From: Dictyostelium discoideum
Taxonomy: Eukaryota
Reading direction: 5' to 3'
Assembly: GCA_000004695.1 (NCBI GenBank)
Contig: CM000150.2
Location: 800,001-864,000, forward strand
Length of the DNA: 64,000 bases
This document shows positions 9,403 through 51,483 of the stretch, in pieces. Both the position numbers and the translations under genes were made by a program. A model generated the notes under the pieces. The model was not told where the DNA came from, ran no database searches, and was given only the letters and a program-made list of their open reading frames with translations. Numbering within the stretch: position 1 is the first letter of the stretch; each line of letters starts with the position of its first letter.

Positions 9403-10455
9403 AACCGAACGTTTTAAGAAAACTAATTTCTAAAAATAATTTTTTTTTTTTTTTTTTATTTATTTTTAGAAATTATTAGAAGTAGAGATAAAAGTGTAAT
9501 TGAAAAATCAACAGTTGCAGTTGATGTTGGAGCAGTTTATAATTTTGAAAAATTAAGATTTGATCATCATCAATCAGGATTCACAGAAACATTTGATGAT
9601 AAACATGATATTAAATTATCAAGTGCAGGTTTAATTTATAAACATTATGGTAAAGATATCATTAAACAACGTTTAGATACAAATGATTCAATTACAGAAT
9701 TATTATATCAAAAACTTTATGATAGTATGATTCAAGAATTGGATGGTGTTGATAATGGTGTTGAAAGATATCCATCAGATATTAAACCAAGATATCAATC
9801 TGGTTCATCAATTAGTGCTAGAGTTGGCCATTTAAATCAAGGTTGGAATGAACCACAAGATGATGAAATTGTAAATAAACAATTTGAGAAAGCAATGGAA
9901 TTAATGGGTCAATACTTTTTAGATCGTTTAGATTATTATGGTAAAGTAAGTATAAATTTATATAAATAAATATAAATAAATATAAATAAAAAAATAAATA
10001 AATAAATAATAATTTTTTTTATTTTTTATTTTCTAAATTAGTCATGGTTACCATGTAGATCAATTGTTGAAAATGCTTTAGAAAATAGAAAACAAACTCA
10101 TTCATCAGGTGAAATTTTAATTTTAGATATGTTTTGTCCATGGAAAGATCATTTATTCTCATTAGAACAAGAAAAGGATATTAAAACTCCAATTAAATTT
10201 GTACTTTTTGAAGATACATCAGGTCAATGGAGAGTATCAGCAGTTGGTATCAATTTACATTCATTCACACTTCGTTTACCACTTCCAGAGGAATGGAGAG
10301 GTAAAAGAGATGAAGAATTATCTCAAATTAGTGGTATTGAAGGTTGTGTTTTTGCTCATGCAAATGGTTTCATTGGTGGTAATAAAACTAGAGAAGGTGC
10401 TTTATTAATGGCAATTAAAACTTTAAATCAATCTCCAAAAACTTTACTTGAATAA
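9237..10455 (+). CDS. MYG1 / UPF0160 family metal-dependent 3'-5' RNA exonuclease, 3 exons: 9237..9366, 9470..9945, 10042..10455.
   Basis: The N-terminus MSDLTICTHSGSFHADEALACYLLKLLP is the MYG1 signature. After splicing, VDVGAVY..FDHHQSGFTETF..SSAGLIYKHYG and VDNGVERY..ARVGHLNQGWNEP are conserved. The C-terminus CPWKDHLF..SGQWRVSAV..LPLPEEWRG..GCVFAHANGFIGGNKTREGAL matches human MYG1 almost end to end. Donors are GTAAGT at 9367 and 9946; acceptors are TTTTTAG at 9469 and AAATTAG at 10041. Confidence 0.85.
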
Positions 10456-14760: not shown

Positions 14761-15598
14761 GGTGTTGTATTTGTTGTTGTGGATTAATTGTTGATTTCCA
14801 ATTTAATAATTCTAATATTGAATTTAAAGGTTTAATAGTTGAAATAAAAGAATTACCTAATAATGATTTATTTTGAATATTTGGTGGATAGCTTGGTTGT
14901 TTTAATATTGAATTATTTTGAAATATTGTTGATAATATATCATGTCTATCATTTAAATGAATTGTTAAATCTGATAAAATCATTTCATTTGATAAATCTT
15001 TACTTCCTATAATTAATGGTGATTTAGATATATTAATTGGTGATTCATATGTTTCATTGATTGTATTATTATTTTCATTATTTAAATTACTATGATTGTT
15101 ATTCTTTTCACAATAATTTGTCTGTTTATAAATTTTACAATTTAAATAAATTTCAGTTGATATTAATTGTGTTCCACTATCATTAAAATTTAATTTAAAA
15201 ATTAAAAATTCCCAATGAAAATATTTTAATTCATCTTTACTTGTATGATAAATTGAATGAATTGAAGTTCTATTTGTTGTTGTTGAATCATTGTATAATC
15301 TTTTATCAAATGACTGATTACCAAAGAAAATACCTGTATCAATATTATTATTTTGTAATTGTGAAAATATTCTATTTACTCTATTATTATCATCTCTATT
15401 GTCATCTTCATTTGGTATCATATAAATCCAACATGAAATTGAAATTGATTTAGTACTATCAATGTGATTTTCTTCTCTATTAAATTCTTCACACATTAAT
15501 ATACTATTCCATGGTATTATAATTTCACTACCATTATTATTATTATTTTTATTATTACTTCCTAATTTGATATTATCAATTAATTTTTTTGTTTTCAT
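11678..15598 (-). CDS. Cytosolic endo-beta-N-acetylglucosaminidase (ENGase), glycoside hydrolase family 85, with large low-complexity expansions.
   Basis: The block CHDMMNGYQ..WSSEFYNFYHWNLIDTFIYFSHHRISIPPVGWINSAHKNGVKVLGTIILEW is the GH85 catalytic core. It is a single 1306-aa ORF containing poly-N/poly-Q/poly-D tracts. Confidence 0.7.
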
Positions 15599-18726: not shown

Positions 18727-18808
18727 GACATCGTAGCGAAGTGGTCTAACGCGTTTGACTTGAAATCAAATCTCCTAGGAGGCGCAGGTTCGAACCCTGC
18801 CGATGTCG
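18727..18808 (+). tRNA. tRNA-Ser (anticodon UGA)
   Basis: The acceptor stem GACATCG pairs with CGATGTC. The anticodon stem TTTGA/TCAAA encloses the loop CTTGAAA, giving anticodon TGA. A long variable arm TCTCCTAGGAGG is present. The T arm is GCAGGTTCGAACCCTGC and the discriminator is G. A TTTTTT terminator follows. Confidence 0.9.
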
Positions 18809-18838
18809 ATCTTTTTTAAGATGTATTCCAGAGGTCAG

Positions 18839-18848
18839 GGGTTCAACT
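18839..18848 (+). promoter_or_regulatory. External B box (exB, GGTTCAACTC), about 30 bp downstream of tRNA-Ser.
   Basis: The sequence cagGGGTTCAACTCttt matches the Pol III B-box consensus GGTTCGANTC and lies outside the tRNA body. This is the characteristic dictyostelid exB arrangement. Confidence 0.6.
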
Positions 18849-18920
18849 CTTTAATTAAATAAAATTAACATGGAAAAAATCCATCAAAACCCCGCTATAA
18901 AAAAAATTAAAAATAAACAA

Positions 18921-18992
18921 GTTTCGATAGCTCAGTGGAAGAGCAAGCGACTGCAAATCGTTAGGTCGCCAGTTCAATCCTGGTTCGGAACT
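18921..18992 (+). tRNA. tRNA-Cys (anticodon GCA)
   Basis: The acceptor stem GTTTCGA pairs with TCGGAAC, with one G-U pair. The D arm is GCTC-AGTGGAA-GAGC. The anticodon stem AGCGA/TCGTT encloses the loop CTGCAAA. The T arm is GCCAGTTCAATCCTGGT and the discriminator is T. Confidence 0.85.
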
Positions 18993-19029
18993 TTCATTTT
19001 GTTTCTCTTATATTTTCCCGAACTTCGAA

Positions 19030-19777
19030 TTTTAAACTTTATTGATAAAATCCATAATTGGGAAAGTAGGACCCAAAAAAAAGACAGCCAAAAAAGATCA
19101 AGAAGTGAATGCAGATTACGCCAACCACAGATTCCACAAAGAATACTTTGAATGGAACTATAAAGCAATAGACTATGATCTAACCAGATCATTCGCATAT
19201 AGAAACCTAATGGCCCTTATCCTCCACAACATTTGGATTTGGATTTGCAATCAAATATACAGTGAAGATCCTTTAACAGATGAATCACTATCATACAGCT
19301 CCCTTCTAAAGAAATGGCACAAATTGGCCACTCTAGAATACATCAAAAAAGCAAAAGATCTGAAAAACTTATCAGCAAAAGACCATAATAACTTCAAAGA
19401 TCCTAAGATCCTTCTCACTTCAACGATCAAGCTAAGAAAAACAACAGCTAATTACTATTGTATTCCAGAATCATCTCTCCCAAATATTATATCTTTTGAT
19501 CAATTCATATGATTAAAATAACCCTTCAGCTTAAATGATAAGACTTTAAATAAATATTAAATAAAACTCGTATTAACACAAAAAAAAAAAAAAAAAAAAA
19601 AAAAAAGATACAGAAAAACATATCCATCATCAATCTAACATCAACTCCCAAATATTATATCTTTTGATCAATTCATATGATTAAAATAACCCTTCAGCTT
19701 AAATGATAAGCCTTTAAATAAATATTAAATAAAACTCGTATTAACACAGATGGACATATATCAATCTTGTTAATCCA

Positions 19778-19790
<13 letters not shown>
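19030..19790 (+). mobile_element. 5'-truncated TRE3-type non-LTR retrotransposon fragment downstream of tRNA-Cys. It holds an ORF2 C-terminal remnant (19042..19512) and a 3' UTR with a duplicated terminal module.
   Basis: The remnant ..HRFHKEYFEWNYKAIDYDLTRSFAYRNLMALILHNIWIWICNQIYS..KKWHKLATLEYIKKAK.. is homologous to the C-terminus of the full-length ORF2 at 44620..48447, which reads HAYWNIISLVIHQIWIWLCKSIF..SKWHKLIRLEY. A ~105-bp module, ctcccaaatattatatcttttgatcaattcatatgattaaaataacccttcagcttaaatgataag.ctttaaataaatattaaataaaactcgtattaacaca, occurs twice at ~19470 and ~19640, each followed by an A-run. Confidence 0.7.
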
Positions 19791-19822
<32 letters not shown>

Positions 19823-21706: not shown

Positions 21707-22292
21707 AATTTTACAAAAATTTCGATAATAATTAGTATAAAATGTTTGACATACCTTTTAATATATGTTCTTTTAAATTTATAAAAACAAATTATTTTTA
21801 ACATATTAATAAAAAAAAATTTTTTTTTTTTTTTAATATTGATTTAAGGAATAAACTGTAATTATAAGGTTTATTTATGAATTTTTAATTTTTTAAAATG
21901 TAATTAATATTTTGGTTTAGATTTAAATATAGGTATTATTACTTTTGATTATCTATTACAAAAATTTTATTTTTTAAAAAAGATGATGTTTTTATTACAG
22001 TTATTATTTATTCACTTTTAAAACTAAAAAAAATGAATAATAGTTGCTTTTTTAATATATTCCAGAGCCTCTAGTGTGCTCCATTCATTAATAAGGATTG
22101 AGAATGATAGTTTTCTCCTTTGCACACCAAACCCAGATTAAATCAATTATTTTCTCACAATGTAAGATATAATAAAATTATATTGTTTATAAGTTTTTTA
22201 TAATCATATTAATAATATTAATAATTATAATAATGATTAAAATTAAACAATATTTAATAAATTAATATTTTGTTGATCAATGTTGCCAAAAA

Positions 22293-22302
22293 GAGTCGAA
22301 CC
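22293..22302 (-). promoter_or_regulatory. External B box (GGTTCGACTC on the minus strand) about 30 bp downstream of the minus-strand tRNA-Ser.
   Basis: The reverse complement of gagtcgaacc, at a position equivalent to the exB of tRNA-Ser copy 1. Confidence 0.6.
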
Positions 22303-22332: not shown

Positions 22333-22414
22333 CGACATCGGCAGGGTTCGAACCTGCGCCTCCTAGGAGATTTGATTTCAAGTCAAACGCGTTAGACCAC
22401 TTCGCTACGATGTC
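22333..22414 (-). tRNA. tRNA-Ser (anticodon UGA), second copy, inverted.
   Basis: An exact reverse complement of the 18727..18808 tRNA. The 5' flank (tttcatcRaa) and 3' flank (T-run plus exB) are also conserved. Confidence 0.9.
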
Positions 22415-35460: not shown

Positions 35461-35754
35461 TTTTAATTTCTTATTTATTTTCAGAGTTCTATTAATTGTT
35501 GGGAAATTAGTTGAAAATGAAATATGAAAAAAAAAAATAAAAAAAAAAAAAGTTGAAAAAAAAATTTGTAAAAAAAAAATAATAAATTAAAAATTTAAAT
35601 ATTTCCAAGAAATTCATTTTTTAAAATTTTAAGAAATTTTTGCTTAAAATTTATTTTATAAAATTCTTAAAATTACTTATTTTGTAAAATTAAGATCGAG
35701 TTAAAATATAAATTTACTATTATTTCAGATAAAAAATTAAAAAATCATCAAAAT

Positions 35755-35825
35755 GGGAGATTAGTTAAGTGGTATAATGCTACCTTTGGGTGGTAGCGTC
35801 CTGAGTTCGATTCTCGGATCTCCCC
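35755..35825 (+). tRNA. tRNA-Pro (anticodon UGG)
   Basis: The acceptor stem GGGAGAT pairs with ATCTCCC. The anticodon stem CTACC/GGTAG encloses the loop TTTGGGT, giving anticodon TGG. The T arm is CTGAGTTCGATTCTCGG. A T-run terminator follows. Confidence 0.85.
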
Positions 35826-35860
35826 ACTTTTTTTTTTAAAAGAAAACCGCTAAGATCACA

Positions 35861-35870
35861 GGTTCGACTC
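35861..35870 (+). promoter_or_regulatory. External B box (GGTTCGACTC), 36 bp downstream of tRNA-Pro #1.
   Basis: The sequence cacaGGTTCGACTCtc. The TRE3 element begins about 20 bp beyond it. Confidence 0.6.
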
Positions 35871-35919
35871 TCTATTTGAAAGATTAATAAAAGAGACAAC
35901 ATAGCACAAAAAAAAAAAA

Positions 35920-36792
35920 ATGAATTTTTTCGATAAACTTAAAGGTGAACTCAACTTAGGCGAAGAAGAGTTAAATAAAAAAACTATTCAAATAAGGTTA
36001 TTCTACCCACATACCTTGGAATTAAATAGTAATTCATCAAAATTAATAGATAATTTCATAGTTAATGGTACTCTTAACATTGTCAGAAGACAAAAGGTTA
36101 TAACAGTATTTGGTAGAATACTAAAAGAAAAATTCACAATATTACACGAGTGTTACAGCACTTTCAAGTATGAAGATTTCCCACTGCAAAAATTCATACT
36201 TTACACCCCAGGATATCACTATGTCCACTTTTACACATTTACAAAAAACATAATAAAAAAAATAAACAATCAAATGGTAAAAGAAAACTGGGGATTGGAG
36301 CCATTACTAATAGATGAATACAACATAGTAATGCTACCAGATGTGATTAGATATTCATGCATTCTATTATTTAATAAAGAAGATGATATCTCAATCATCA
36401 AAACAAACATTGATGCTATAAAAGGTAGTAAGCATCCAATAAGAGCCTTCATCTCAGAATATAACAATAAAGAAATAAGAGATGTTAGAAAAAAAAAAAA
36501 CACAAGTAATAAAAATCAACAACCAACAACTACAAATACAACTAAATCAATACCATCAACTCCACCAACAACTAATGCATTAACAACCACACCAATAACA
36601 ACCACACCAATAACAACCACACAAACAACAACCACACCAACAACAACCACACATCAATTACCAACAAGCAATACAACAATCAACAACCTAAACAAAACTA
36701 CTACTACTACTACTACTACTACAAAACCTATCAATAAAATTACTACAAGCAATGGTACCAAGTTTCCAATTGCCAGTAGTATTAGAAAATAA
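35920..36792 (+). CDS. TRE3 #1 ORF1 (gag-like nucleic-acid-binding protein)
   Basis: 290 aa with a Thr/Pro-rich C-terminus. Its stop codon overlaps the ORF2 ATG (TAATGG). Confidence 0.7.
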   Translation: MNFFDKLKGELNLGEEELNKKTIQIRLFYPHTLELNSNSSKLIDNFIVNGTLNIVRRQKVITVFGRILKEKFTILHECYSTFKYEDFPLQKFILYTPGYHYVHFYTFTKNIIKKINNQMVKENWGLEPLLIDEYNIVMLPDVIRYSCILLFNKEDDISIIKTNIDAIKGSKHPIRAFISEYNNKEIRDVRKKKNTSNKNQQPTTTNTTKSIPSTPPTTNALTTTPITTTPITTTQTTTTPTTTTHQLPTSNTTINNLNKTTTTTTTTTKPINKITTSNGTKFPIASSIRK

Positions 36793-39700
36793 TGGAACAA
36801 TTAAAATTATTACTATGGAACTGCAGAGGTAATCAATCAACCAAGGCTAAGAATAAAACAGAAGAAACGATAAAAAGAATTGGCACTCAATTAGCACTCC
36901 TAACTGAAACTAATTTCAATGGATTCAACCACCACAAAACAATGTTCAACTTTGAAAGAATAGATCATGGTTCAGGTAAAGGAACTGGCATAGCAATAGA
37001 AAATAGAGATACAAGAAAAGGCCACATATCAATAAACTTCAAAGACGATGATGGTAGAATACTATCAATTAAATACAATTCCTTTAATTCTATCAACATA
37101 TTATTGATCTATGCTCCAGCGACTATATCTGAAAGAAACACCTTCATAATCAACTCAAAATCACTGTTTAAAAAATATAATTCAATCAACCATCAAATAA
37201 TAGCAGGCGACTTCAATAACAACCACGATTGCAACAGCTTCTTCGGTAATGAATTACGTAAAATAATAGACCGAAACATGCTACTAGATACTGGTATTGA
37301 AGAAAACACTCCAACATTTCCAAGATCAATGAAGAGACTAGATAGAATCTACTGTCATCCAACACTACTAAACCAAAATTCAAAACTGGTAGTCCACAAA
37401 ACAGTATTTAACAAATCAGATCACTTTCCCATCACAATCGCAATACAAACCAACAGAGAAACAACAACAACAACAACAACCAAACTAGAAAGACTCCCTT
37501 GGACATTATGTAAAGAAATTCTCAACAACAAACATATACATGATGGGTTATCAGAATTAATCAGTAAGAACAAAGATAAGATCAAATCAGTGGAGGAATG
37601 GACGAAATTTAAAAATAATGTCATCAGAGATTATTTAAAAAAAGAACAAAACAAAATTAAGAAAGAAAAGAACAAAAGAAAATACGTAATCCACAAATTA
37701 CTTGGAAATAGTGATATCATTCCAAAGATGAGAAAAGAACTCAATGAAGAAATAAGTAGAATATTAGAAGAAGAAAGAAAGGTAAAAGCATGGGATATCA
37801 AATTAAAACTCCACCTGCATCAAGAAACACCAAGCAAATACCTCACAAGTATCCTTAAATCCAGAGCCAAAGATAAATCAATATTCCAAATAAAAGATAA
37901 AGATAATAAGACCATATCAGATAAAGAGAATATAGCAAAAAGATTTGTTGAATTCTATCAAGATCAATATGAAGAGAAAGAAGATAACGAAGAAACCCAC
38001 AAGAAGTTATTAGAAAAATGGGAAGTAGACGTTGATTTAATCAAGAAACTCGAGATAGACAGACCGATAAGAATACATGAAGTGACCAAAGCAATCAAAA
38101 CTTCAAGTATCCACAAATCTCCAGGTTTAGACGGTATCAATGCACTATTCTACAAGTACCACATCAACTCAATAGCAAGAATATTGACTATAGCTTTCAA
38201 CGACCTCCTCACAAATAAGAAAGAAATCCCCACAAAATTCAAAGAAGGAGTAATAACAACAATATTCAAAAAAGGAGATGAACTAAACATTTCAAATAGA
38301 AGACCAATCACCCTTCTCAATACAGATTACAAAATTTTAAGCAAAATTCTCAACAGTAGATTATTAGATATCACCAGTAAAATTATCAACAAATTTCAAA
38401 ACGGCTTTGTTCCAAACAGGTTCATCCAAGACAATATTCAGATCATGAAGGAAGTAATAGAAATAAGTAACAAAAGAAAGAACAATACACTCATTACCTT
38501 TTACGATTTTAACAAAGCATTCGATTCAATCAGCCACAAGAGTATCACAAGAACATTAGAGCATATTGGTATCCCCCCAAAATTCACAGCGATCCTACTA
38601 AACCTACTCAAAGATACTAAAAACAAAATAAAGATCAACGACTTTTTAGTCAATGGAATAACAATCAGAAGAGGAACAAAACAAGGAGACCCAATATCAC
38701 CAACAATCTTTGCTCTAGTTTTAGAACCACTTCTAATAGATATCATCAATGATAATACAATCAAAGGCTTCACTCTACCAAATTCCAAATCATTAAAACT
38801 CACTGCATTTGCTGACGACATAGCAACATTTACAAACTCCACAGAAGAACTAATGAAAATTAATACTAAAATCCAAAAGTACTGCTCAGCAACATCATCA
38901 TCGTTAAACAAAGAGAAAACAGTAATGATAGCAATAGGAGATAAACCACACGATCTACCATTCCAAGAGAGTACAGTCCCAGAAAGATATCTTGGCCTCA
39001 ATTTCACCAAAACAGGTTTAAATTCAAAATACAACACTTTAATCCAAGAAATGAAAAACAATCTAATCAAATGGAAATCACAAGCAATAACGATGAAGGC
39101 AAAGATGACAATTCTCAAAACATACGTTCTATCCAAATTAACATACCATCAATACATGGATAATCTAAATGAAGAACAAATTGAGGAAATCAATAACATG
39201 ACCAGATGGTTCTTATTCTCCTCAGTTAAGAATACATATACAGAAGAGAGAAAATACAAAACTATGATGAAAATAGACAGAGCATATGCAGATTGGAAAG
39301 AAGGAGGCATAAAATTATGGGATATAGAACTAAGACATATAGCATTCAAAATCTGGTACATGAACAGGCTACTCCATAACAACTACAACAACAACAACAA
39401 TACCTTACAAGAATGGTACATGGAGCAATTAAGTAGAAAAAAAGCCCACACTTCAACCCTCAACGATATGTGCAGACACTGGGGTGTATTCAGAGTCAAA
39501 TTTTACCAAAACCATCCAAAGATAAATGAACTTCCAGACTGTATAAGAAACGACAATGACGAACCACTAAAACTGAAAGAAATTTACGAACTCATGATCA
39601 AAGACAGACACCCAACACCAAGAAGAACAGAATGGCAGAAGTTATGGGCGGTGAGATACAACACAGCAATACCCAAAGTATTCATAAACATCAACAGCAT

Positions 39701-40235
39701 TTCTCACCAAAAAGGTAGAAACACCCTCTTCAGATTCTTCTCAAGATCACTTCCAGGTATCAACCACGAAAGAGACACCAGATGCAAGATCTGTGGCCAC
39801 CTATTCAGAGACCCTTATTCTCACCTCTTCACTCTATGCCAAGATATCCTTGATATTGAAAAAACCATCATATCAACAGTTAACAAATTATCATTCACCA
39901 AAATCCACAGATGGTCAATGGATACCTTAGACATATCAAAATACAACAGAACTGAGAGAATCTTCCCCAATCTCATAGGAATAATAGCACACCAATTATG
40001 GAAGATAATCTGTCACAAATTGTTCAACACTGATGAAAGCAAACCAGAGCCAAAATTCGAACAAAAGGTCATAGAAACAGAATTACTAAATCTCATCGAA
40101 ACTGAAAAATTCATCACACTAAAGAAAATCAAACACGACGAAGCAATACTAAAAAACACCAATCAAGATCTTCACAAATACAAATTCAACAAAGCCTGGC
40201 AAACCCCAGCAGCTCCGAACCCTCTTCCAATTTAA
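36792..40235 (+). CDS. TRE3 #1 ORF2 (apurinic-endonuclease-like endonuclease plus reverse transcriptase plus C-terminal Cys/His region)
   Basis: The N-terminal endonuclease reads LLLWNCRGNQS..LALLTETN..DRIYCHP..SDHFPI. The reverse-transcriptase blocks are PGLDGINALFYKY, TLLNTDYKILSKILNSRL, FYDFNKAFDSISH, AFADDIATF and the ..HLFTLCQDIL.. HxxxC region. Confidence 0.85.
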   Translation: MEQLKLLLWNCRGNQSTKAKNKTEETIKRIGTQLALLTETNFNGFNHHKTMFNFERIDHGSGKGTGIAIENRDTRKGHISINFKDDDGRILSIKYNSFNSINILLIYAPATISERNTFIINSKSLFKKYNSINHQIIAGDFNNNHDCNSFFGNELRKIIDRNMLLDTGIEENTPTFPRSMKRLDRIYCHPTLLNQNSKLVVHKTVFNKSDHFPITIAIQTNRETTTTTTTKLERLPWTLCKEILNNKHIHDGLSELISKNKDKIKSVEEWTKFKNNVIRDYLKKEQNKIKKEKNKRKYVIHKLLGNSDIIPKMRKELNEEISRILEEERKVKAWDIKLKLHLHQETPSKYLTSILKSRAKDKSIFQIKDKDNKTISDKENIAKRFVEFYQDQYEEKEDNEETHKKLLEKWEVDVDLIKKLEIDRPIRIHEVTKAIKTSSIHKSPGLDGINALFYKYHINSIARILTIAFNDLLTNKKEIPTKFKEGVITTIFKKGDELNISNRRPITLLNTDYKILSKILNSRLLDITSKIINKFQNGFVPNRFIQDNIQIMKEVIEISNKRKNNTLITFYDFNKAFDSISHKSITRTLEHIGIPPKFTAILLNLLKDTKNKIKINDFLVNGITIRRGTKQGDPISPTIFALVLEPLLIDIINDNTIKGFTLPNSKSLKLTAFADDIATFTNSTEELMKINTKIQKYCSATSSSLNKEKTVMIAIGDKPHDLPFQESTVPERYLGLNFTKTGLNSKYNTLIQEMKNNLIKWKSQAITMKAKMTILKTYVLSKLTYHQYMDNLNEEQIEEINNMTRWFLFSSVKNTYTEERKYKTMMKIDRAYADWKEGGIKLWDIELRHIAFKIWYMNRLLHNNYNNNNNTLQEWYMEQLSRKKAHTSTLNDMCRHWGVFRVKFYQNHPKINELPDCIRNDNDEPLKLKEIYELMIKDRHPTPRRTEWQKLWAVRYNTAIPKVFININSISHQKGRNTLFRFFSRSLPGINHERDTRCKICGHLFRDPYSHLFTLCQDILDIEKTIISTVNKLSFTKIHRWSMDTLDISKYNRTERIFPNLIGIIAHQLWKIICHKLFNTDESKPEPKFEQKVIETELLNLIETEKFITLKKIKHDEAILKNTNQDLHKYKFNKAWQTPAAPNPLPI

Positions 40236-40240
40236 GTAGT

Positions 40241-40315
<75 letters not shown>

Positions 40316-40320
<5 letters not shown>

Positions 40321-40819
40321 TAATATAGTTTAAAAAATTTAATACAATTGAATAATAAAAATAAAACCGTTTAACAAACACCGCCGAAAAGACACAAGGA
40401 CATTCCTTGAAGGTCTGATCACAGGTAAAAAAAAAAAAAAAAAAAAAAGACAACATAGCACTAACTCCCAACATCGGAACTTGGGTGTGCAACCAATTGT
40501 AAAACGATGAACCGTCTTAAGATGGAAAGCTCTCTTAATCGGCCTTACTTAATAAATGGAACAAACTAGCCACCCTAGAATATATAAAAAGATTTAAAAT
40601 TAACTCTTTCAAAAGATCCGAGTAATTTTAACGACCCAAATAATTTCCTTAAACAAAAAATCAAATTTAGGAAACTAACTTGCAAAGTATATTGTATTCC
40701 AGAATCAATTCTCCTGAATCTTATCTCATTCAGCCAATTTATCTAAAAAACTAAAATTTTATTCAATAGTAAATACCAACGAGTTTTAAAATTGATATAA
40801 TCAATTCTACAAAAAAAAA

Positions 40820-40851
<32 letters not shown>

Positions 40852-41640
40852 AAAAAAAAAAATCTTTACTTTTTAAAATTAAAATACATATATAAACTAT
40901 TAATTATTGTTTATTTCCTTTAATTGATAAACTGTGACTAATCAATATATATAAAAAAAAGAAAGGATAAAAACTTTCATATTCTTTCGACTCCCTTTAA
41001 TTAACAAATGTTACAAACTTGTCACTCATTAATATATCAAAAATGAAGAAAAATTTAAATTATCCCATCCAAAAGATTCAAGCGATTTCAAAAATCCAAA
41101 ATATTTCCTTAATATAATATAAAGATTAAGAAAACTAACATGCAAAGCTTATTGTATTCCAGAATCAGTGCTTCCCAATATTGTATCATTTGCCAATTCA
41201 TATTATTAAACACAATTTCAATATTTAATTTATCTATTTTATTCATTTAATTGAAATACAAACATTTCTAAAACTGGATATTTTAAAAACAATAATAATG
41301 CACTATATTTTAAAAATTAAAATTTATTTTTTGTCAACTAAAAAAAAGAATCCGAAAAGATTCTTATAGAAACTATGTCTCAATCATTATCCACCGCACA
41401 TGGATATGCAAAATTCTGTTCAACTCAACCCTACACAAAAGAGCATTATTTCCTTACTCCGAGGACAAATAAACTTCAAAGGTATCCACCATAAGTGGAT
41501 AAACCTAATGAATCTCAAACTCTCCAAAATATCCCAGAAACTCAAAGGTTTGTTACCTTAAATACTCAGCCTTAATTACCATTAAAACATTAAAAAAAAT
41601 AAAAAGGTTTATTACCTAAAATTAAAATTGTTTTTTTTTT
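40316..41640 (+). mobile_element. Tandem array of 5'-truncated TRE3 3'-end fragments (at least three) behind the full-length copy.
   Basis: A 5' leader motif aaagacaacatagcac sits at 40447. Three separate stretches homologous to the ORF2 C-terminal/3'UTR region start at ~40550, ~41040 and ~41340. Each reads (..ctagaatatataaaaa.. / ..ctaacatgcaaagcttattgtattccagaatca..) and each ends in an A-run. Confidence 0.6.
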
Positions 41641-41785
41641 GTTAAAAAACTCACTATTAATCGTTTTTTTAAAGTTTTTTTTTAATATTATTATTAGATT
41701 ATTTTTATATTATTGGTATTATTATTATTTTATTATTATTTTAAATAAGAAGTTAATTTAAAAAACTAAAAACGTTTTTTTTGAT

Positions 41786-42498
41786 AACCCAATTATTATT
41801 TGCTTCTCCCGTCGGCTTCGTGATTGATGTTGACGACATATTTGAATTATTTTTTTTTTATTTGAGTTTTGTCTACAATTTCTCTTATTTTTTGTAGGCA
41901 TTTGTTTTTCTTAATATTTGTGGTGTTGTTTGTAATTTTCATCTTATTTTCTTTCTATTTTTTTATTTTACTTTAACTTGAGTTACCAGGTTTTTTTTTT
42001 TTTTTTTTTTTTAGTATTATTATTTATAGAGAGTACTGAGTGAATTATTGTATTTTTTGAGATGTTTGGGAAGTGCTATTGCGTGAAGTGGTGAGTTCCA
42101 TTGTTTGCTGAATTGTAATAGTATTAGCGAGAGTCTAGTTTGTTTTGTTCTTCTGGCCGTTGGTTTGATTTGGTCCTTAATGTTTTGTTTACCGATTGTG
42201 TCCTGTCCCATGCAGCCCTTTGTGTTTTAATCAGTTCTCGTATGACTTGTTTTCTATGTATTATTATTTCTTTTTAGTCGTGGATGAGCAACAGTATGGC
42301 GTGTCTTTAAGGTTGATGGTGCGTAAAAAACTTTTTTTTTTTTTGAATTGGATAACGCAATTATTATTTGCTTCTCCTTGAGATGCTAGATCTCATTTTA
42401 TTTTATTTTATTTTTATTTTTTACAGGGGGTGTGCGTAATTTTTTTTTTTTTTTAATAACATCACTCAATTTGAGTGTGTTCTAGGAGAGTTTATTTG

Positions 42499-42532
<34 letters not shown>

Positions 42533-42655
42533 CTTTTTTTCTTGTTATTCTTATTTTTTTTTTTTTTATTATTATTATATTATTATTATTATTATTATAT
42601 TATTATTATTATATTATTATTATTATTATATTATTATTATTATTATTATTGTTAT

Positions 42656-42694
<39 letters not shown>

Positions 42695-43157
42695 AGTAGT
42701 TGGTGTTATATGAGCAGTATGGTATGAAGTGTTCCGGGATTTTTATGGTCATGAGTTTCGAGTTCCAGTTGTGGCTGAATTTTTCGAGTCTTCTTTTTAT
42801 TGATGCGGTCCGATTGATTGACTCTCGGTTATCAGTGCATCTTAGTTCTTGACGTAGTTGTTTTTCTACTATCTTTCTTGTTCTATCCCATTCGGCATCT
42901 CTCGCTTTTTTTATTTTATGAATTATTTGGTTCTCTGTTATTATTGTAGTGTTATCGTTGAATTTTATTTGATTTCTTCTGTACCATATCGATTCCATAA
43001 TGGCTCCTATCAGATTTGATGAGAATGGTGTGAGTAGTTTTCCGAGAACTTTTTCGCTCCATGGACCGTGGTAAGTGTTGTTGGAGTCTTTACAGACCTT
43101 TTGATAGATTGAGTCGATATTCTGTTTTATTGATTTGCATTCGAAGAAGATGTGCAT
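41786..43157 (-). mobile_element. Minus-strand non-LTR retrotransposon remnants lying 58 bp upstream of tRNA-Pro #2, in a TRE5-like (5'-of-tRNA) position and in head-to-head orientation. They comprise an ORF2 C-terminal fragment (42690..43157) plus 3'-terminal sequence.
   Basis: The minus ORF ..HIFFECKSIKQNIDSIYQKVCKD..WYRRNQIKFND.. carries the HxxxC Cys/His motif typical of the ORF2 C-terminus in L1-like elements. Compare HLFTLCQ and HLFFNCQ in the two TRE3 ORF2s. A 28-bp terminal motif, gataacNcaattattatttgcttctcc, occurs twice at 41786 and 42351, each abutting an A-run on the minus strand. This suggests two tandem 3' termini. Confidence 0.45.
42690..43157 (-). pseudogene. Truncated retroelement ORF2 C-terminal fragment (Cys/His region)
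   Basis: See the parent element. There is no N-terminal endonuclease or reverse-transcriptase portion, and the fragment is in frame only from 43157 downward. Confidence 0.5.
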
Positions 43158-43215
43158 AGTGTGCGTAAAAAACTAAAAATGCTTTCAGCTAAAAAAATTT
43201 AAAAAACATCAAAAT

Positions 43216-43286
43216 GGGAGATTAGTTAAGTGGTATAATGCTACCTTTGGGTGGTAGCGTCCTGAGTTCGATTCTCGGATCTCCCC
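43216..43286 (+). tRNA. tRNA-Pro (anticodon UGG), second identical copy.
   Basis: The 71-nt sequence is identical to 35755..35825, and the flanks are similar (aaaaNcatcaaaat upstream, T-run plus exB downstream). Confidence 0.85.
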
Positions 43287-43314
43287 ACATTTTTTTTAAA
43301 AACCGTTGATCACA

Positions 43315-43324
43315 GGTTCGAATC
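43315..43324 (+). promoter_or_regulatory. External B box (GGTTCGAATC), 29 bp downstream of tRNA-Pro #2.
   Basis: The sequence cacaGGTTCGAATCttc. Confidence 0.6.
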
Positions 43325-43414
43325 TTCAACTACCTCAAATACATTCATTCCTCTTAATTTTACCCTTTTTTTGCTCATTAAAGCAAGGGCTATCGTCCTA
43401 TATACTTTTCAACA

Positions 43415-44623
43415 ATGGCTGATGATCACTCAACTGAATTACAGTTAAATCATACAGATAACAACACGACCAATACAAATAATACCTCCACAACCTCAAC
43501 AACAAAAAATAAAAGTGCAAAAATCGACACACCTAAAAAACAAACCCCAACAAACCAACTCTCACTAAACAAAGGACTTGATAATCAATTAGATATCATT
43601 GCACCTCCATCAATCACAAGACCACTCTCTTTCTTAGAAAAAAACAATAACACCATCAACATTAAGTGTTACTTTAATCAACCACACATCCGTGAAGAAT
43701 TAACCTCAAAAGATGACACAAGAATTCAACAAATTCACAAAAACATTCACAAACTCTTCGAAGATATACTGTCGCCATCAGCATTCAAAATAATTGGTGC
43801 AACTGCCTTCGTAAATTGCAACGTTGATAAATTAACTTCAATAATCAACCTTCAAAACCAACTTGCACTAAATATCGACAAACTCAACTATAGATTCGAT
43901 ATATCATCAAATGATTATGCAATCATTAAAACATTCATTAAAACGTACTCACCCAAACATGCAAACGATGCAATTACAAACAACCTCACTAAATTCACCA
44001 GTTGTACATCAATTGAATCATTTACTGTCACATACTCATATGCTGTTGCGTTTAAAAGCTACATTATAACATATCATCTAATTGATCACACACACAACAT
44101 TATTGATCAAAAGATCGAACAACCATCTGGTATCACAAGATATATCAAAGCTGCAACACGTAGTGTCACTAAACACAAAATTCAACATGCAAAAAATGCA
44201 GATATGGCAACAACTATAAAAAATGCCATCACAAACCCAAACATGAACAAAAACAATCAACCACCAAAAAACAACATTAACACCCCACCAATCAACGAAA
44301 TTGCAAATTCCAATCGCAATAATAACTCACTTCAAAATAGTGGTTCAAAAGCTATACTAAATGAATCACTTGATATTAACAATCAATCCCAAAACAATAA
44401 TGAAATTTCACACAAAAGTGATTCTTCAAATAATAATAACGGGAAAAACTCTTTATCAATGAGCAATCCAACCGATCCAACAATTGTACCACAAAAACCT
44501 CTACAATCTCAACCAAACAAACCAAGTGCACCAACTCCAAATACAATAAATACAAGAAGAAGCAGCAATGCCCTGACTACACAACCAGTCAATACTGGTG
44601 CTGCCAAACCTAGTAAGGTATGA
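43415..44623 (+). CDS. TRE3 #2 ORF1
   Basis: 402 aa with a Thr/Asn-rich N-terminus and basic patches. Its stop TGA overlaps the ORF2 start (ATGA), giving a -1 frame relationship. Confidence 0.7.
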   Translation: MADDHSTELQLNHTDNNTTNTNNTSTTSTTKNKSAKIDTPKKQTPTNQLSLNKGLDNQLDIIAPPSITRPLSFLEKNNNTINIKCYFNQPHIREELTSKDDTRIQQIHKNIHKLFEDILSPSAFKIIGATAFVNCNVDKLTSIINLQNQLALNIDKLNYRFDISSNDYAIIKTFIKTYSPKHANDAITNNLTKFTSCTSIESFTVTYSYAVAFKSYIITYHLIDHTHNIIDQKIEQPSGITRYIKAATRSVTKHKIQHAKNADMATTIKNAITNPNMNKNNQPPKNNINTPPINEIANSNRNNNSLQNSGSKAILNESLDINNQSQNNNEISHKSDSSNNNNGKNSLSMSNPTDPTIVPQKPLQSQPNKPSAPTPNTINTRRSSNALTTQPVNTGAAKPSKV

Positions 44624-47600
44624 GCTCAAAAATCAACTTTATAACATGGAATTGTAGAGGATTCACTGAAAACCCAAACAATCAACACAATTCCTACCAA
44701 AAAGCTGTTGACACACTACAACTACTTATATCAAAACTTCCACCTCGTCCAACAATCTCAATACTCACTGAACTCAATTCATCACCATTACAACTTAAAC
44801 ATGATTTTCCCGATCACATCATCTCTGTCACCAAACGAGGAAATGGTGTAATCATCATTAACCATAACCCAAACACACTCAAACTCAAACACATATCAAC
44901 AATTGATGGTAGAGCTATTTTAGCAGACGTTATATTTCCAAATCAATTACCAATTGGTATTCTTGGAATTTACGCACCAGCATCAAATAATACCATCAAA
45001 AAGAATTCATATGCAACTTCACTACAAACACTTCTCCACAACCACTCAACAAACCCAATACCAAACCAATCCCAACATGTATCTATTATCGCAGGAGATT
45101 TCAACTGTATCCACAACGACAATTCACTATTAGATGATATTATCCAATCCTACACATACCAACACCATCTAATTGATCAAGGTGAATTTAAAAACACTCC
45201 AACTCATACACATGGCAACAGATTAGATAGAATATATACTCAATACAATAGAATAGACCCTGAAAATATATATACACAAGTCCACCAAATTCCATCTTCA
45301 TTATCAGATCATAATCCAATATCAACAACAATTTCTTCACCTTTTCAAATAAATAAACATAAGAAAAGATGGATATTATCACCTGGTACTGCAAATGACC
45401 ATGAAGCAATCAATATTATCAATCATTTAATAACTAATCACAATAACACATCAATCAATCAATTTACAAACTGGTCAAAAGTAAAATCAAAAATTATAAA
45501 AACTCTAAAAAACTATCAATATAACAAAGACAAACAAACTCAACGTGCAAAACAAATACTATTAGAAAAAGCAGCAAAATTCAAACATCTTGAAGAACAA
45601 TGCATCGCTGAATACAATATTATATGTAACAAAAACAAACTACATCAAAACCACACAAACATATTAAAAAAACATATAAATGGAGAAATACCTAGCAAGT
45701 ATCTATCAGCAATACTAAACAAAAGATCAAAAGATGCAAAAATTGAATCAATCCAATATGGTAACATCATTACATCCGACCCCGACCAAATTGAAAATGC
45801 GTTTGTTGAATTCTACACAAATCTATATAGCTTACAAATATGTTGTCCAATTACTCACCAGCTCATGCTAAACACATGGCCCATCATAAAAAATGAATAT
45901 TGGAATGGTTTAGACTCACCATTTATACAAGATGAAGTTGAAGCTGCAATTAAAACCTGTAACCCCAACAAATCACCCGGTCCAGATGGCGTTACAAATG
46001 CATTCTACATTAATCATTTAAACCAAGTTAAACCAATTCTCACTACATTATTCAACGATATACTAGAAAATCCTCACCACATCACAACAGAATTCACAGA
46101 AGGTCTTATACACACAATATACAAGAAAGGCAACCCCTTACTCATATCAAATCGTCGTCCCATTACACTTCTAAACACTGATTACAAGATCCTCTCAAAA
46201 GTAATCAATGCACGTCTTCTGAGAATACTTCCTTTCATCATCAACAACAACCAAACTGGTTTCGTACCCCACAGATTCATCATAGACAACATCATCAACA
46301 TCAATGAATTAATCAACTACCTCAAATCTAAAAACCTCCCTGGTATCATCACACTATTTGACTTCTTTAAAGCATTTGATTCTATCTCTCACGATAGCAT
46401 TAAAAGAACATTAATTCATATTGGTATACCAATAAAATTAATAAATTTAATCCACAAGCTATTATCTGACTCACAAGCAAAAATTTCAATTAATGGTAAA
46501 ACGACCAGAAAATTCGATATTAAAAGAGGTGTAAAACAAGGTGACCCAATCTCAGCCACTTTATTTGTAATTGTAATTGAAATATTAGCAAGAACAATAA
46601 ATGCAGACAATTCAATAATTGGATTACCAATTTCACCCAATCCACAAATTAAAATTAAATTTACCCAATTTGCAGACGACTCTACAACATACAACATCAA
46701 CTACGAACAACAACAACAATCAATCAAACATTTCGATAATTTCTGCGCTTCAACATCATCATCATTAAATTTTGACAAAAGTGCAATAATAGAAATCAAC
46801 CCCCACAAAATCACTGATAAACACATAATAAACAACATTCCACAATCAAAAAGAATTCCAATAACCAAAAAAGATCAATCAGAAAGAGTTCTTGGCTATT
46901 TCTTTAATCATAATGGTTTACATAGGAAATTACCAGAAACAATGAAAACACTGATTAAATCATTAGTGCTATGGAAAACTAGTGGCACAACATTAAAAAC
47001 AAAAACAACCATCATAAACACCTACTCACTATCACCAATAACATATTTATCATACCTTGAAGAATTTACAAAAGATGAAGAAATTCAAATTAATAAATTA
47101 ATCTCATGGTTTATGAATTCTCCCGCAAATTCTGAATCACCAACTCTCGATACCAATTCCATTGAAAAAAACACATCAACCATCCATTCACGTGCAAAAA
47201 TACCTTTGATGTGTTATGATAGATCATTAAAACCATTAAAAGAAGGTGGTTGGGGTATGTGGAATATACAATTACGACAAGTTGCTCAAAAGATTTGGAT
47301 ATACAACAGATTTTTACAAATGCATAAATCTGCAAACAATTCAATATACATGATAAGTTGGATGGATCAAATCATCAACAAATCAATCTCTTCTCCATAC
47401 CTTATAAAAATCAAAAAAGAATGGGAAAACTATGCAACTCAAATTGGACATCTAAAAGATAAAGTTCAAATCCTACAACCAATATTAACAAAAAACCAAC
47501 CCTCTCAAACATTAAACACAAATAATATTTCACTACCACCAACACTCAAAGAAATCTACTCGACAATACTAAACAATCACCAATGCAAATCAAAAGACTA

Positions 47601-48447
47601 TATTGGCAAGAAATATTCAGATCTACTTCTTACTTCGCACCAACAATCAATACAACTATTATGGAAATACACATACGACCAACTTTTCGTCAAAATTCAA
47701 AAATTAAAAGATCCAAAAGGCCGAGATACAATGCAAAGATTCCATGCTAGATGTCTTCCGATTAATCATCTACACAACAAAGTTTGCCCCATTTTCAACA
47801 ATGAAATGAATAATGATCCCTATGGTCATTTGTTTTTCAATTGTCAGCACACAATCAACTTCATTAACCACGACAAATTAAAATATTTTATATATAAAAA
47901 TTGCAATGGAAACAAAAACTGGTCACTAACAAAAAACCAAACAACAAAATTATACACACTCATCTATAAACCACAAACAAACAACAAAGCATTTAAACCA
48001 GATCCAACTATCAATATTAATTTTCATTTTGCAGAAAACGCACAATATAAAAAATACAGGTTCAACTGGAATTATATAAACACAAATCTTGATCTAGTCA
48101 GAACACATGCATATTGGAACATAATCTCATTAGTTATTCACCAAATATGGATATGGTTATGCAAATCAATATTTGACATCAATATAACTCAATCAATTGA
48201 TAATTGGAACAACCAAATAAACAACACAACACTAGATTATGATATATTAAAATCAAAATGGCACAAGCTAATAAGATTGGAATATTCAAGAACTTTATCA
48301 AACTTTAACCAATACTCAATTAAAAACAACCTCATAAAAACTCAAAAAGAAACCCAATGGTCCGAAACCATCAAAAAATTTAAAAAAGAATGGAGCATAA
48401 ACACTAATGAACCAATTCCAACAATTACACCACCAATTAATTATTAA
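44620..48447 (+). CDS. TRE3 #2 ORF2 (endonuclease plus reverse transcriptase)
   Basis: The endonuclease reads FITWNCRGF..ILTELN..AGDFNCIH..SDHNPI. The reverse-transcriptase blocks are PGPDGVTNAFY, TLLNTDYKILSKVINARL, FFKAFDSISHDSI and QFADDSTTY. A C-terminal HLFFNCQH Cys/His motif is present. Confidence 0.85.
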   Translation: MSSKINFITWNCRGFTENPNNQHNSYQKAVDTLQLLISKLPPRPTISILTELNSSPLQLKHDFPDHIISVTKRGNGVIIINHNPNTLKLKHISTIDGRAILADVIFPNQLPIGILGIYAPASNNTIKKNSYATSLQTLLHNHSTNPIPNQSQHVSIIAGDFNCIHNDNSLLDDIIQSYTYQHHLIDQGEFKNTPTHTHGNRLDRIYTQYNRIDPENIYTQVHQIPSSLSDHNPISTTISSPFQINKHKKRWILSPGTANDHEAINIINHLITNHNNTSINQFTNWSKVKSKIIKTLKNYQYNKDKQTQRAKQILLEKAAKFKHLEEQCIAEYNIICNKNKLHQNHTNILKKHINGEIPSKYLSAILNKRSKDAKIESIQYGNIITSDPDQIENAFVEFYTNLYSLQICCPITHQLMLNTWPIIKNEYWNGLDSPFIQDEVEAAIKTCNPNKSPGPDGVTNAFYINHLNQVKPILTTLFNDILENPHHITTEFTEGLIHTIYKKGNPLLISNRRPITLLNTDYKILSKVINARLLRILPFIINNNQTGFVPHRFIIDNIININELINYLKSKNLPGIITLFDFFKAFDSISHDSIKRTLIHIGIPIKLINLIHKLLSDSQAKISINGKTTRKFDIKRGVKQGDPISATLFVIVIEILARTINADNSIIGLPISPNPQIKIKFTQFADDSTTYNINYEQQQQSIKHFDNFCASTSSSLNFDKSAIIEINPHKITDKHIINNIPQSKRIPITKKDQSERVLGYFFNHNGLHRKLPETMKTLIKSLVLWKTSGTTLKTKTTIINTYSLSPITYLSYLEEFTKDEEIQINKLISWFMNSPANSESPTLDTNSIEKNTSTIHSRAKIPLMCYDRSLKPLKEGGWGMWNIQLRQVAQKIWIYNRFLQMHKSANNSIYMISWMDQIINKSISSPYLIKIKKEWENYATQIGHLKDKVQILQPILTKNQPSQTLNTNNISLPPTLKEIYSTILNNHQCKSKDYIGKKYSDLLLTSHQQSIQLLWKYTYDQLFVKIQKLKDPKGRDTMQRFHARCLPINHLHNKVCPIFNNEMNNDPYGHLFFNCQHTINFINHDKLKYFIYKNCNGNKNWSLTKNQTTKLYTLIYKPQTNNKAFKPDPTININFHFAENAQYKKYRFNWNYINTNLDLVRTHAYWNIISLVIHQIWIWLCKSIFDINITQSIDNWNNQINNTTLDYDILKSKWHKLIRLEYSRTLSNFNQYSIKNNLIKTQKETQWSETIKKFKKEWSINTNEPIPTITPPINY

Positions 48448-48620
48448 TTACCTAATCTAAAATAACATACTATTTTAAATTCACAAAAACTAAAAAACCT
48501 AAAATAAATAAATAAAAATAACATACTAATTGTATACTACAATAGTTTATTTATATCAAAAAAAAAAAAACGAATCTTCAATTAAGTTCATTAATTATAT
48601 CAAAAAAAAAAAAAAAAAGT

Positions 48621-49330
48621 TCACATTAAAATGGTATCTCAATAAAGCTATGACAACGACCTTTCTATACATTTTTTTCATATAAAAATATAAAAGCATT
48701 GATATTACACCAGATATGGATATGGATTTGTAAACAAATATACAGCCAAGGTAACTTTGGATCCATAAATAATTAAAAACTTTAAACAATCGTCATCAAA
48801 TTTGTAACAAACGCTAATATATCAAAAAAATTAAAAAAATTAATGATCAAAGACTATTGTATACCAAACATAGCCCTACCAAATTGATTAATTGTGGATT
48901 AATATATGTGGAATGGTATGAAAATTATGACTTATTCAGAACCTTCTCATGGAAACATAATGGCATTATTAATTCATAACATCTGGGAATGGATCTGCCA
49001 TCAATTGAATAGTGACGAATCCTTTATAGGTGAAAAAATCTCATTTTCAACTCTGATGGTATTTTAAAAAAAAAAAAAAAACTATTATTTAATTTTAAAA
49101 TAGTCTTATTTAAAAAAAAAAACAAATCAATTCTCAACCTAAACAAAAAAAAGTTTAAAAAATCAAATTACCAAATACTTTATTCTAAATCTCAGCCTTT
49201 CCTGAGATGAGAGTATTAGTAGGACAATTTAATGTAAAATTTTAATACCTTTAAATCATCAAATTTTAATTTTAATTAAAAAAATATTTTTAAAAAAAAA
49301 AAAAATAGACTTTATTTATACCCCTCTTAT
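48621..49330 (+). mobile_element. Additional TRE3 3'-end fragments following element #2
   Basis: Two ORF2 C-terminal remnants are readable: ..tacaccagatatggatatggatttgtaaacaaatatacag.. (IWIWIC-like) and ..LIHNIWEWICHQLNSDESF... The terminal ..ctcagcctttcctgag.. motif resembles the 41500-41600 terminus. Confidence 0.5.

Positions 49331-49531: not shown

Positions 49532-51483
<1,952 letters not shown>

Follow-up and report, generated by a model that had tools for sequence, protein, structure and literature searches.

What accounts for the crowd of retroelement sequence around two identical tRNA-Pro(UGG) genes in a 64,000-nt stretch of Dictyostelium discoideum DNA (assembly GCA_000004695.1, contig CM000150.2, positions 800,001 to 864,000; hereafter the window), where each gene is followed on the same strand by a large element with two open reading frames (ORFs) and then by the 3′ remnants of others? 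The tRNA-targeted non-LTR retroelements (TREs) of this organism have been studied since 1989, and we are highly confident that the two genes are a landing pad for them, hit repeatedly via target-primed reverse transcription. The sequence anatomy, the target-site duplications (TSDs), the relative insertion order and the lineage relationships were obtained here; the targeting mechanism, in which tRNA genes bound by TFIIIC/TFIIIB are recognised, is drawn from the literature, where it is experimental for TRE5-A only and the factor used by TRE3 elements has been deduced. Coordinates are those of the window, which is strongly AT-rich, and features lie on the plus strand unless stated otherwise.

The two tRNA-Pro(UGG) genes, called by ARAGORN at 35755–35825 (#1) and 43216–43286 (#2), are 100% identical over their 71 nt. 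Each is followed by a run of T's, read directly from the sequence (a T10 run at 35828–35837 as the RNA polymerase III (Pol III) terminator of #1, and a T-run at 43290–43297 for #2), and then by an external B box recovered by motif enrichment: GGTTCGACTCT at 35861–35871, 36 nt past tRNA-Pro #1, and GGTTCGAATCT at 43315–43325, 29 nt past tRNA-Pro #2. The motif GGTTCRANTC occurs six times in the window against an expectation of 0.36, and four of the six occurrences lie, in tRNA orientation, 29–36 nt 3′ of tRNA genes. Because of this enrichment and placement, GGTTCGACTCT and GGTTCGAATCT are, judged by motif and position, genuine external B boxes.

The element downstream of tRNA-Pro #1, element 1 (35908–40448; 4541 nt), starts 82 nt past the 3′ end of the gene on the same strand and is bounded by an exact 13-nt TSD, with its left copy at 35895–35907 and its right copy, GACAACATAGCAC, at 40449–40461. 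It encodes an ORF1 of 290 aa (35920–36792) and an ORF2 of 1147 aa (36792–40235) with APE (endonuclease) and reverse transcriptase (RT) as well as a zinc knuckle of the form CX2CX9HX4C. Element 2 (43330–48570; 5241 nt) starts 43 nt past the 3′ end of tRNA-Pro #2, again on the same strand, between exact 11-nt copies of CGAATCTTCAA (43319–43329 and 48571–48581). Since the left copy takes in the final 7 nt of external B box #2, integration occurred at the edge of that box. Element 2 encodes an ORF1 of 402 aa (43415–44623) and an ORF2 of 1275 aa (44620–48447) with APE, RT and a zinc-knuckle variant, HX3CX13HX4C, and closes with a tail of A13 (48558–48570). In both elements ORF2 contains the Pfam domains Exo_endo_phos and RVT_1 as well as the RT motif FADD, has its zinc knuckle at the C-terminus, and lies in the −1 frame, overlapping ORF1 at TAATG in element 1 and at ATGA in element 2. 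The two ORF2s are 33% identical and the two ORF1s, when compared, showed no similarity; TRE ORF1 proteins are reported to be mutually unrelated (PMC5006619).

A preliminary description of the locus had reported two identical tRNA-Pro(UGG) genes, each trailed by a T-run and an external B box ∼30 bp downstream, and behind each a full-length, two-ORF element in the same orientation, the two having dissimilar ORF1s, belonging to different TRE3 lineages and having inserted independently. The tRNA genes and their flanks were recovered as described, as were the two ORFs and the orientation, and independent insertion agrees with the ORF2 divergence, the unrelated ORF1s and the distinct TSDs, now that the 5′ junctions are mapped to a 13-nt repeat at one locus and an 11-nt repeat at the other. 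The exception is the term full-length, since the leaders of both elements are probably missing.

The surroundings of element 1 record an order of arrival. A short stub that holds its left TSD precedes it (35892–35907), and its right TSD is followed by a body of decayed ORF2 C-terminus and 3′ untranslated region (UTR) that runs from 40462 to 40862 and ends in an A-tail (40811–40862). When element 1 and one TSD copy are removed in silico, 35892–40862 aligns unbroken with a TRE3-A-like element that lies behind a tRNA-Phe gene in L001, one of eight loci fetched for comparison; the part of that element covered is its final ∼440 nt, made up of ORF2 C-terminus, 3′ UTR and tail. The stub and the body are thus the severed parts of one remnant, F1, which is 58% identical to the L001 element at the amino acid level and ∼66% at the nucleotide level; because the alignment is continuous after the removal of element 1, F1 is the older of the two and was split by element 1. 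The insertion point of F1 itself is 67 nt after tRNA-Pro #1.

Element 1 also extends further than its most conspicuous A-run suggests. This run, 73 nt long at 40244–40316, behaves on sequence comparison as a hypervariable, length-polymorphic homopolymer inside the element and not as its tail: it measures 28 nt in the orthologue from another strain, ACTFIT, 26 nt in L001 and 37 nt in a copy from a sister species (L008). These same three copies share with element 1 the ∼110 nt that come after the run, as far as CTGATCACAGGT, and a second poly(A), and because both recur there we place the true 3′ end of element 1 at 40448, 132 nt beyond the A-run, with the 3′ module at 40317–40426 and a tail of A22 at 40427–40448. 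A sister lineage of element 1, 60% identical in ORF2 and likewise found downstream of tRNA genes (P0021/P0136; L006 6183–8600; L002 15175–15205), has an intact ORF2 of 1147–1149 aa and the matching layout of stop codon, A-run, ∼110-nt module and poly(A), its 3′ end reading ...CCGCTTTTAGGT before the poly(A). We read the 3′ end of the TRE3-C clade, to which element 1 most likely belongs, as bipartite (ORF2 stop, variable A-run, a module of ∼110–115 nt and the real poly(A)) in D. discoideum, in the 60% sister lineage and in the sister species.

Behind F1 lies F2 (40997–41330, boundaries approximate), a more decayed TRE3-A-like 3′ end with 49% amino acid identity, which is 66–72% identical to F1 at the nucleotide level. 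The stretch after it (41331–41650) resembles the sense strand of a retroelement in composition (GC 29%, GC skew −0.34), but the window and the eight fetched loci contain no homolog of it at either the nucleotide or the protein level; a spacer of 9% GC (41651–41759) closes the array. Behind element 2 stand G1 (48582–48618), the 20-nt 3′ terminus of a TRE3-B-like element followed by A17, which matches the 3′ end in L002 at 96% across 28 nt; G2 (48619–48905, end approximate), a 3′ remnant of a sister lineage of the TRE3-A-like element that is 77–86% identical to L007 8750–9092; and G3 (48906–49081), a TRE3 ORF2 C-terminal remnant with 45% amino acid identity that ends in A16. An AT-rich stretch with two short A-runs follows (49082–49305) and has low-complexity matches only. 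F1, F2, G2 and G3 are only 45–86% identical to any full element and to one another, derive from other lineages than the adjoining intact element, and each has its own terminal A-run. Because of these distinct lineages and A-tails, F2, G2 and G3 would be independent insertions.

The upstream side of tRNA-Pro #2 holds a second record, in which three 5′-truncated minus-strand elements are nested within 41760–43181, opposite in orientation to the tRNA gene and with their A-tails pointing away from it. E1 (41775–42324, minus strand) comprises the 3′ end of ORF2, an internal A-run, a portion of the B-module and the terminus of the C-module, and its tail is T8 at 41775–41782; it is 88% identical to a TRE5-A.2-type element of ACTFIT, carries an extra deletion of ∼105 nt across the B and C modules, and is flanked by a distal TSD copy, AAAAAACTAAAAACG (41760–41774, unstranded), whose partner at 43167–43181 differs by one mismatch, AAAAAACTAAAAA[C/T]G. 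E2 (42332–42429, minus strand) consists of ∼85 nt of TRE5-A C-module with an A13 tail, 96% identical to ACTFIT TRE5-A, between copies of GTGCGTAAAAAAC (42319–42331 and 43161–43173). E3 (42440–43158, minus strand), from another TRE5 lineage, retains an ORF2 C-terminus (42690–43157) that matches only short Dictyostelium fragments, followed by A/(TAA)n simple sequence (42503–42691), a 48-nt 3′ module and a tail of A15 (42440–42454), and its TSD is GTGTGCGTAA (42430–42439 and 43159–43168). The same 3′ UTR (A/TAA simple sequence, 48-nt module and poly(A)) is found in a copy upstream of tRNA-Glu in L003. On the tRNA side the three TSDs overlap in a single composite (43159–43181, unstranded), at −35 to −57 relative to tRNA-Pro #2. 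Since such overlapping proximal TSDs arise only if E1 was followed by E2 and then by E3, we conclude from the overlaps that the three integrated in turn at −35 to −57, each on the tRNA side of its predecessor.

By their B- and C-module sequence (88% and 96% to the BC region) we assign E1 and E2 to TRE5-A, also known as DRE. E3 is probably TRE5-B, a label reached by exclusion because E3 is without the C-module end, and a 3′ end without a C-module is the condition described for TRE5-B (PMC3159450). TRE5-C, of which only short fragments are known, was a first guess for E3 and was dropped, as TRE5-C reportedly ends in a C-module and E3 does not.

The preliminary description had omitted this nested array, which is the clearest ordered record at the locus, and had read its ordered insertion history from the fragments trailing each element. 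An order can indeed be recovered behind element 1, which, however, landed inside an older copy and not ahead of a series of later ones. What had been taken for an intact A-tail of ∼70 nt (40245..40315) is the internal A-run, and element 1's right TSD, together with the resumption of F1, accounts for the supposed separate fragment at ∼40447. The fragment placed at ∼41040 is real, being F2, and begins at ∼40997, while that at ∼41340 falls in the stretch with retroelement-like composition only. Behind element 2, where at least two 3′ fragments had been announced, there are G1, G2 and G3.

Could the trailing 3′ fragments instead be built into the elements as modular or duplicated ends, or have arisen when elements recombined with one another? 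Parts of the sequence do point that way: the long A-run and the next 110 nt belong to element 1 itself, internal A-runs are also present in TRE5-A, E3 and the TRE3-C sister lineage, and a TRE3-A-like copy accompanied by a deleted derivative of ∼210 nt is found in like form at window 19040–19818 and at L001 5040–5805, suggesting a composite unit. What such a structure would not predict is that F1, F2, G2 and G3 are divergent, foreign to the lineage of the element they adjoin and furnished with their own A-runs, that element 1 physically divides F1 and is bounded there by a clean TSD, and that the TRE5 series has three separate TSD pairs. We consider this explanation unlikely and prefer repeated, separate insertion. 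The composite itself stands in the window downstream of a tRNA-Ser/tRNA-Cys pair (18727–19818), where a 5′-truncated TRE3-A-like copy, 93% identical in amino acid sequence to the L001 element, begins ∼50 nt past the pair and ends in an A27 tail, to be followed by the internally deleted derivative with an A35 tail of its own; in L001 the matching arrangement lies behind the full element (5572–5805). Perhaps this duplicated TRE3-A-like 3′ end is mobile as one unit, or perhaps it is a derivative that is short and non-autonomous.

Far harder to maintain, we find, is the view that the second locus is a copy of the first, through segmental duplication or as an artefact of assembly, and that the events were not independent. 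Identity of the tRNA genes speaks for it, as does 90% similarity over ∼33 nt of upstream and 45 nt of downstream flank, but locus-to-locus similarity is limited to 35723–35871 versus 43183–43325 (∼150 nt around the tRNA), stops ∼45 nt past the gene, and gives way to elements with divergent ORF2s, unrelated ORF1s, and different insertion points and TSDs. ACTFIT, represented by an independent assembly (GCA_054883475.1, locus L004), is moreover collinear with 35708–43145 at 99.2–99.96% identity. The short shared flank and this collinearity therefore effectively exclude a duplication or artefact, which the preliminary description had expected to betray itself by identical flanks beyond the tRNA. 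The same comparison uncovered an insertion polymorphism: ACTFIT carries, 47 nt upstream of tRNA-Pro #1, a TRE5-A.2-type element of 2365 nt with a 14-nt TSD, ATAAATTTACTATT, organised as AB-ORF1-BC with a duplicated A-module, a 448-aa ORF1 and an ORF2 stub, for which window 35708–35721 in AX4 is the empty site. Because this insertion is present in ACTFIT and absent from the window, the landing pad at tRNA-Pro #1 is still in use.

The events at the locus can be combined into a model. Each tRNA-Pro(UGG) is a Pol III gene whose internal A and B boxes are supplemented by an external B box, and TREs would use target-primed reverse transcription to insert at a set distance from the Pol III transcription complex. 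At tRNA-Pro #1 an old TRE3-A-like 3′ remnant, F1, integrated first, 67 nt downstream, and a TRE3-C-type element, element 1, then entered F1 at 82 nt, duplicating 13 nt. At tRNA-Pro #2 a TRE3-B-type element, element 2, entered at 43 nt, duplicating 11 nt and displacing the older G1–G3 away from the tRNA, and on the upstream side three 5′-truncated TRE5s entered successively at 35–57 nt, each on the tRNA side of the last. Target-primed reverse transcription fits because of the A-tails, the frequent 5′ truncation, the TSDs of 10–15 nt, the fixed distance windows and the fixed orientation, and it is in these same features that one can recognise the footprint, proposed from the outset, that is expected when a position defined by Pol III is hit again and again.

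The geometry is that of the known families. TRE3 elements insert 40–150 bp downstream of tRNA genes (observed range 14–305) in the same orientation, with an internal or an external B box usable, and TRE5 elements 44–54 bp upstream in the opposite orientation (PMC5911963), a placement that involves contact between ORF1 and TFIIIB (PMC5911963, PMC3159450). Elements 1 and 2 share with TRE3 the domain order APE–RT–zinc finger, the distance and orientation relative to the tRNA, a poly(A) with a TSD, and the grouping of their ORF2s; E1–E3 share with TRE5 the position ∼50 bp upstream, the opposite orientation and the TSD. The TRE3-type lineages of the window are also found downstream and in the same orientation at tRNA-Phe (L001), tRNA-Lys (L002), tRNA-Thr (L005), tRNA-Cys (window 18920) and an intron-containing tRNA (L006). 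A gene-dense genome with little intergenic space (PMC5006619) might crowd insertions together by chance or for want of room rather than by active targeting, but this is scarcely credible given at least 10 separate insertions in fixed windows (+43 to ∼+200 in the same orientation, −35 to −57 in the opposite one), a matching geometry at every other fetched locus of these lineages, and the experimental demonstration of targeting for TRE5-A (PMC3159450).

Some further observations concern tRNA genes and sequence elsewhere. The tRNA-Ser(UGA) gene at 22333–22414 (minus strand) has an external B box (22293–22302) 31 nt downstream, and a short TRE3-like remnant (22050–22115, minus strand), 73% identical to F1, lies ∼220 nt downstream in the same orientation. 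ARAGORN, run in its bacterial setting, missed the tRNA gene at L006 6020–6117, which has an apparent intron (GACGCTTTGTCAGAGTGGTT...GCAGGTTCAAATCCTGCAGGCGTCG), so that tRNA associations can be under-called. Beyond the retroelement arrays, ORFs of both strands contain long runs of (ATT)n/(AAT)n triplets (49720–50290 and 50540–50870); these runs encode poly-Asn or similar, are typical of Dictyostelium, and dominate unmasked self-comparisons.

To place the elements among known lineages, we built a neighbour-joining tree from 888 ORF2 columns with 200 bootstraps, its clades being labelled by genomic position and fragment similarity, not by named reference sequences. Elements 1 and 2 group with the TRE3-A-like lineage and other downstream-type lineages at 99.5% bootstrap, and the TRE5-like, upstream-type clade stands apart at 100%; a placement outside TRE3, which the preliminary description had named as grounds for its own refutation, was thus not observed. 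TRE3-C has been reported to join the TRE3 group when whole ORF2s are compared, a placement that our tree mirrors. The consensus lengths of TRE3-A, TRE3-B and TRE3-C are 5229, 5279 and 4734 nt, and TRE3-C is represented by 29 copies, 2 of them full-length in AX4, and TRE3-B by 43 copies, 9 of them full-length (PMC5006619, Table 1); for TRE3-D the literature gives only a partial consensus of 1559 bp. The ORF1 of element 1 is exactly AX4 DDB_G0267778 (XP_647303.1), whose accession adjoins that of repD/XPD (XP_647302.1), itself one of the exact AX4 chromosome 1 protein matches among the host ORFs of the window, together with mitochondrial EF-G and DDB_G0268520. It clusters, at at least 90%, with a GenBank 'gag' of 290 aa deposited in 1999 (AAD43058.1), the ORF2 of element 2 clusters with a 1275-aa 'pol' (AAD43057.1), and these two are consecutive 1999 accessions. 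The consensus lengths, the relative abundance (the element 2 lineage is scarcer than the TRE3-A-like lineage) and the consecutive accessions point to TRE3-C as the most likely name for element 1 and to TRE3-B as that for element 2, the naming being indirect. Element 1 resembles TRE3-C in its two ORFs, its APE–RT–zinc finger ORF2, its position downstream of a tRNA in the same orientation and its size, that of the shortest TRE3, and element 2 resembles TRE3-B in its near-equal length (5241 versus 5279) and in its 'pol' cluster; by length alone element 2 could also be TRE3-A (5229 bp).

Both elements differ from their presumed families at the 5′ end. Element 1 has intact ORFs, yet most of its 5′ UTR or leader is probably missing, because just 12 A's separate its start from the ATG and it is ∼190 nt shorter than the 4734-bp TRE3-C consensus. 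Element 2, which agrees at 99% with copies behind tRNA-Lys and tRNA-Thr, likewise has intact ORFs and a 5′ end that is probably truncated: two 99%-identical copies behind tRNA-Lys (L002) have an extra leader of ∼80–100 nt upstream of ACATTCATTCC, and in its place element 2 has 11 nt unrelated to other copies. Neither element, then, is likely to be full-length in the sense of retaining a 5′ UTR or promoter. In L002 the two TRE3-B-type copies stand in tandem (9805–9830, 15158–15220 and 19546–19558) and are flanked by ACTATATTTTTAG, and an inner repeat, TTTTAGTATTACCAAAA, would put a B-box-like GGTTCAAATCC at the extreme 5′ end of the proximal copy; either an external B box travelled with the element through 5′ transduction, or its TSD is something other than this repeat.

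The 3′ end of element 1 invites two further ideas. Tentatively, the ∼110–115-nt module of TRE3-C may be a functional 3′ recognition module derived from an ancient 3′ transduction, with the C-module of TRE5-A as its proposed analogue, and, as a separate matter, the P0136-type lineage may be a fifth TRE3 lineage or full-length TRE3-D; taken together we rate these two proposals as possible though rather doubtful. We also considered whether element 1, at its 3′ end, imitates the 3′ flank of tRNA-Pro, as AAAACCGTT...GATCACAGGT occurs in both, and GATCACAGGT, preceded by AAAACCG(T/C)T, lies just before both external B boxes (35854–35863 and 43308–43317) and at the 3′ terminus of element 1 (40417–40426). 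This idea was rejected, the likeness being probably due to chance, because the sister-species copy has AAATCATTT...CAATCATAGGT in its place and because 45 nt separate the motif from the insertion point.

A number of points weigh against our interpretation, mostly in its details. For F1 a comparison by eye gave only a degenerate AT-rich likeness between 35872–35894 and 40864–40886, which we rejected as a clean TSD and do not rely on, and F2, G2 and G3 have no demonstrable TSDs; the stretches at 41331–41650 and 49082–49305 match no element in the window or the fetched loci. The loss of the element 1 leader lacks support from homology: the 195 nt upstream of the L001 copy were a candidate for a conserved 5′ UTR, but when they were aligned with the sister-species copy and with the TRE3-B leader, the match, A-runs set aside, did not surpass that of shuffled sequence, and the candidate was rejected. 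The subfamily names come from lengths, abundance and two consecutive 1999 accessions, not from alignment to reference sequences, and the tree's TRE5 labels were given on the strength of resemblance, at the C-terminus, to fragments upstream of tRNAs. Finally, we count five TRE3-type ORF2 lineages, including the sister of element 1 and a P0019-type sister of the TRE3-A-like element, against four published names, so that one of the subfamily names may have to shift; the real TRE3-C or TRE3-D could be the DDB_G0269266/P0136-type sister lineage (60% in amino acids).

Set beside known systems, E1 and E2 resemble TRE5-A and TRE5-A.2 in module sequence (88–96%), upstream position and opposite orientation, and E3 resembles TRE5-B in its 3′ end and shares the position and orientation of E1 and E2; unlike TRE5-A and TRE5-B themselves, all three are 5′-truncated remnants. 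The yeast elements Ty3 and Ty1 also integrate at specific positions near Pol III genes and reuse their targets, but they are long-terminal-repeat elements that use an integrase and insert upstream only, and integration of the TRE3 type downstream of tRNA genes is found in dictyostelids only (PMC5911963).

tRNA-gene targeting by TRE3 and TRE5, the external B box and tandem TRE arrays in D. discoideum are already published, with sequential targeting that produces tandems stated in the supplement of PMC5006619, and this locus is a clear example of them, not a discovery. It leaves current understanding unchanged, and its value is that of a worked example in the reference strain. The exact TSDs give insertion coordinates to the single nucleotide, and the split F1 together with the three nested TRE5 TSDs gives a relative chronology. 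Annotators are warned against taking a long A-run inside the 3′ UTR of a TRE for the tail of the element, and the comparison of strains indicates that tRNA-Pro #1 is still being hit by TRE5-A.

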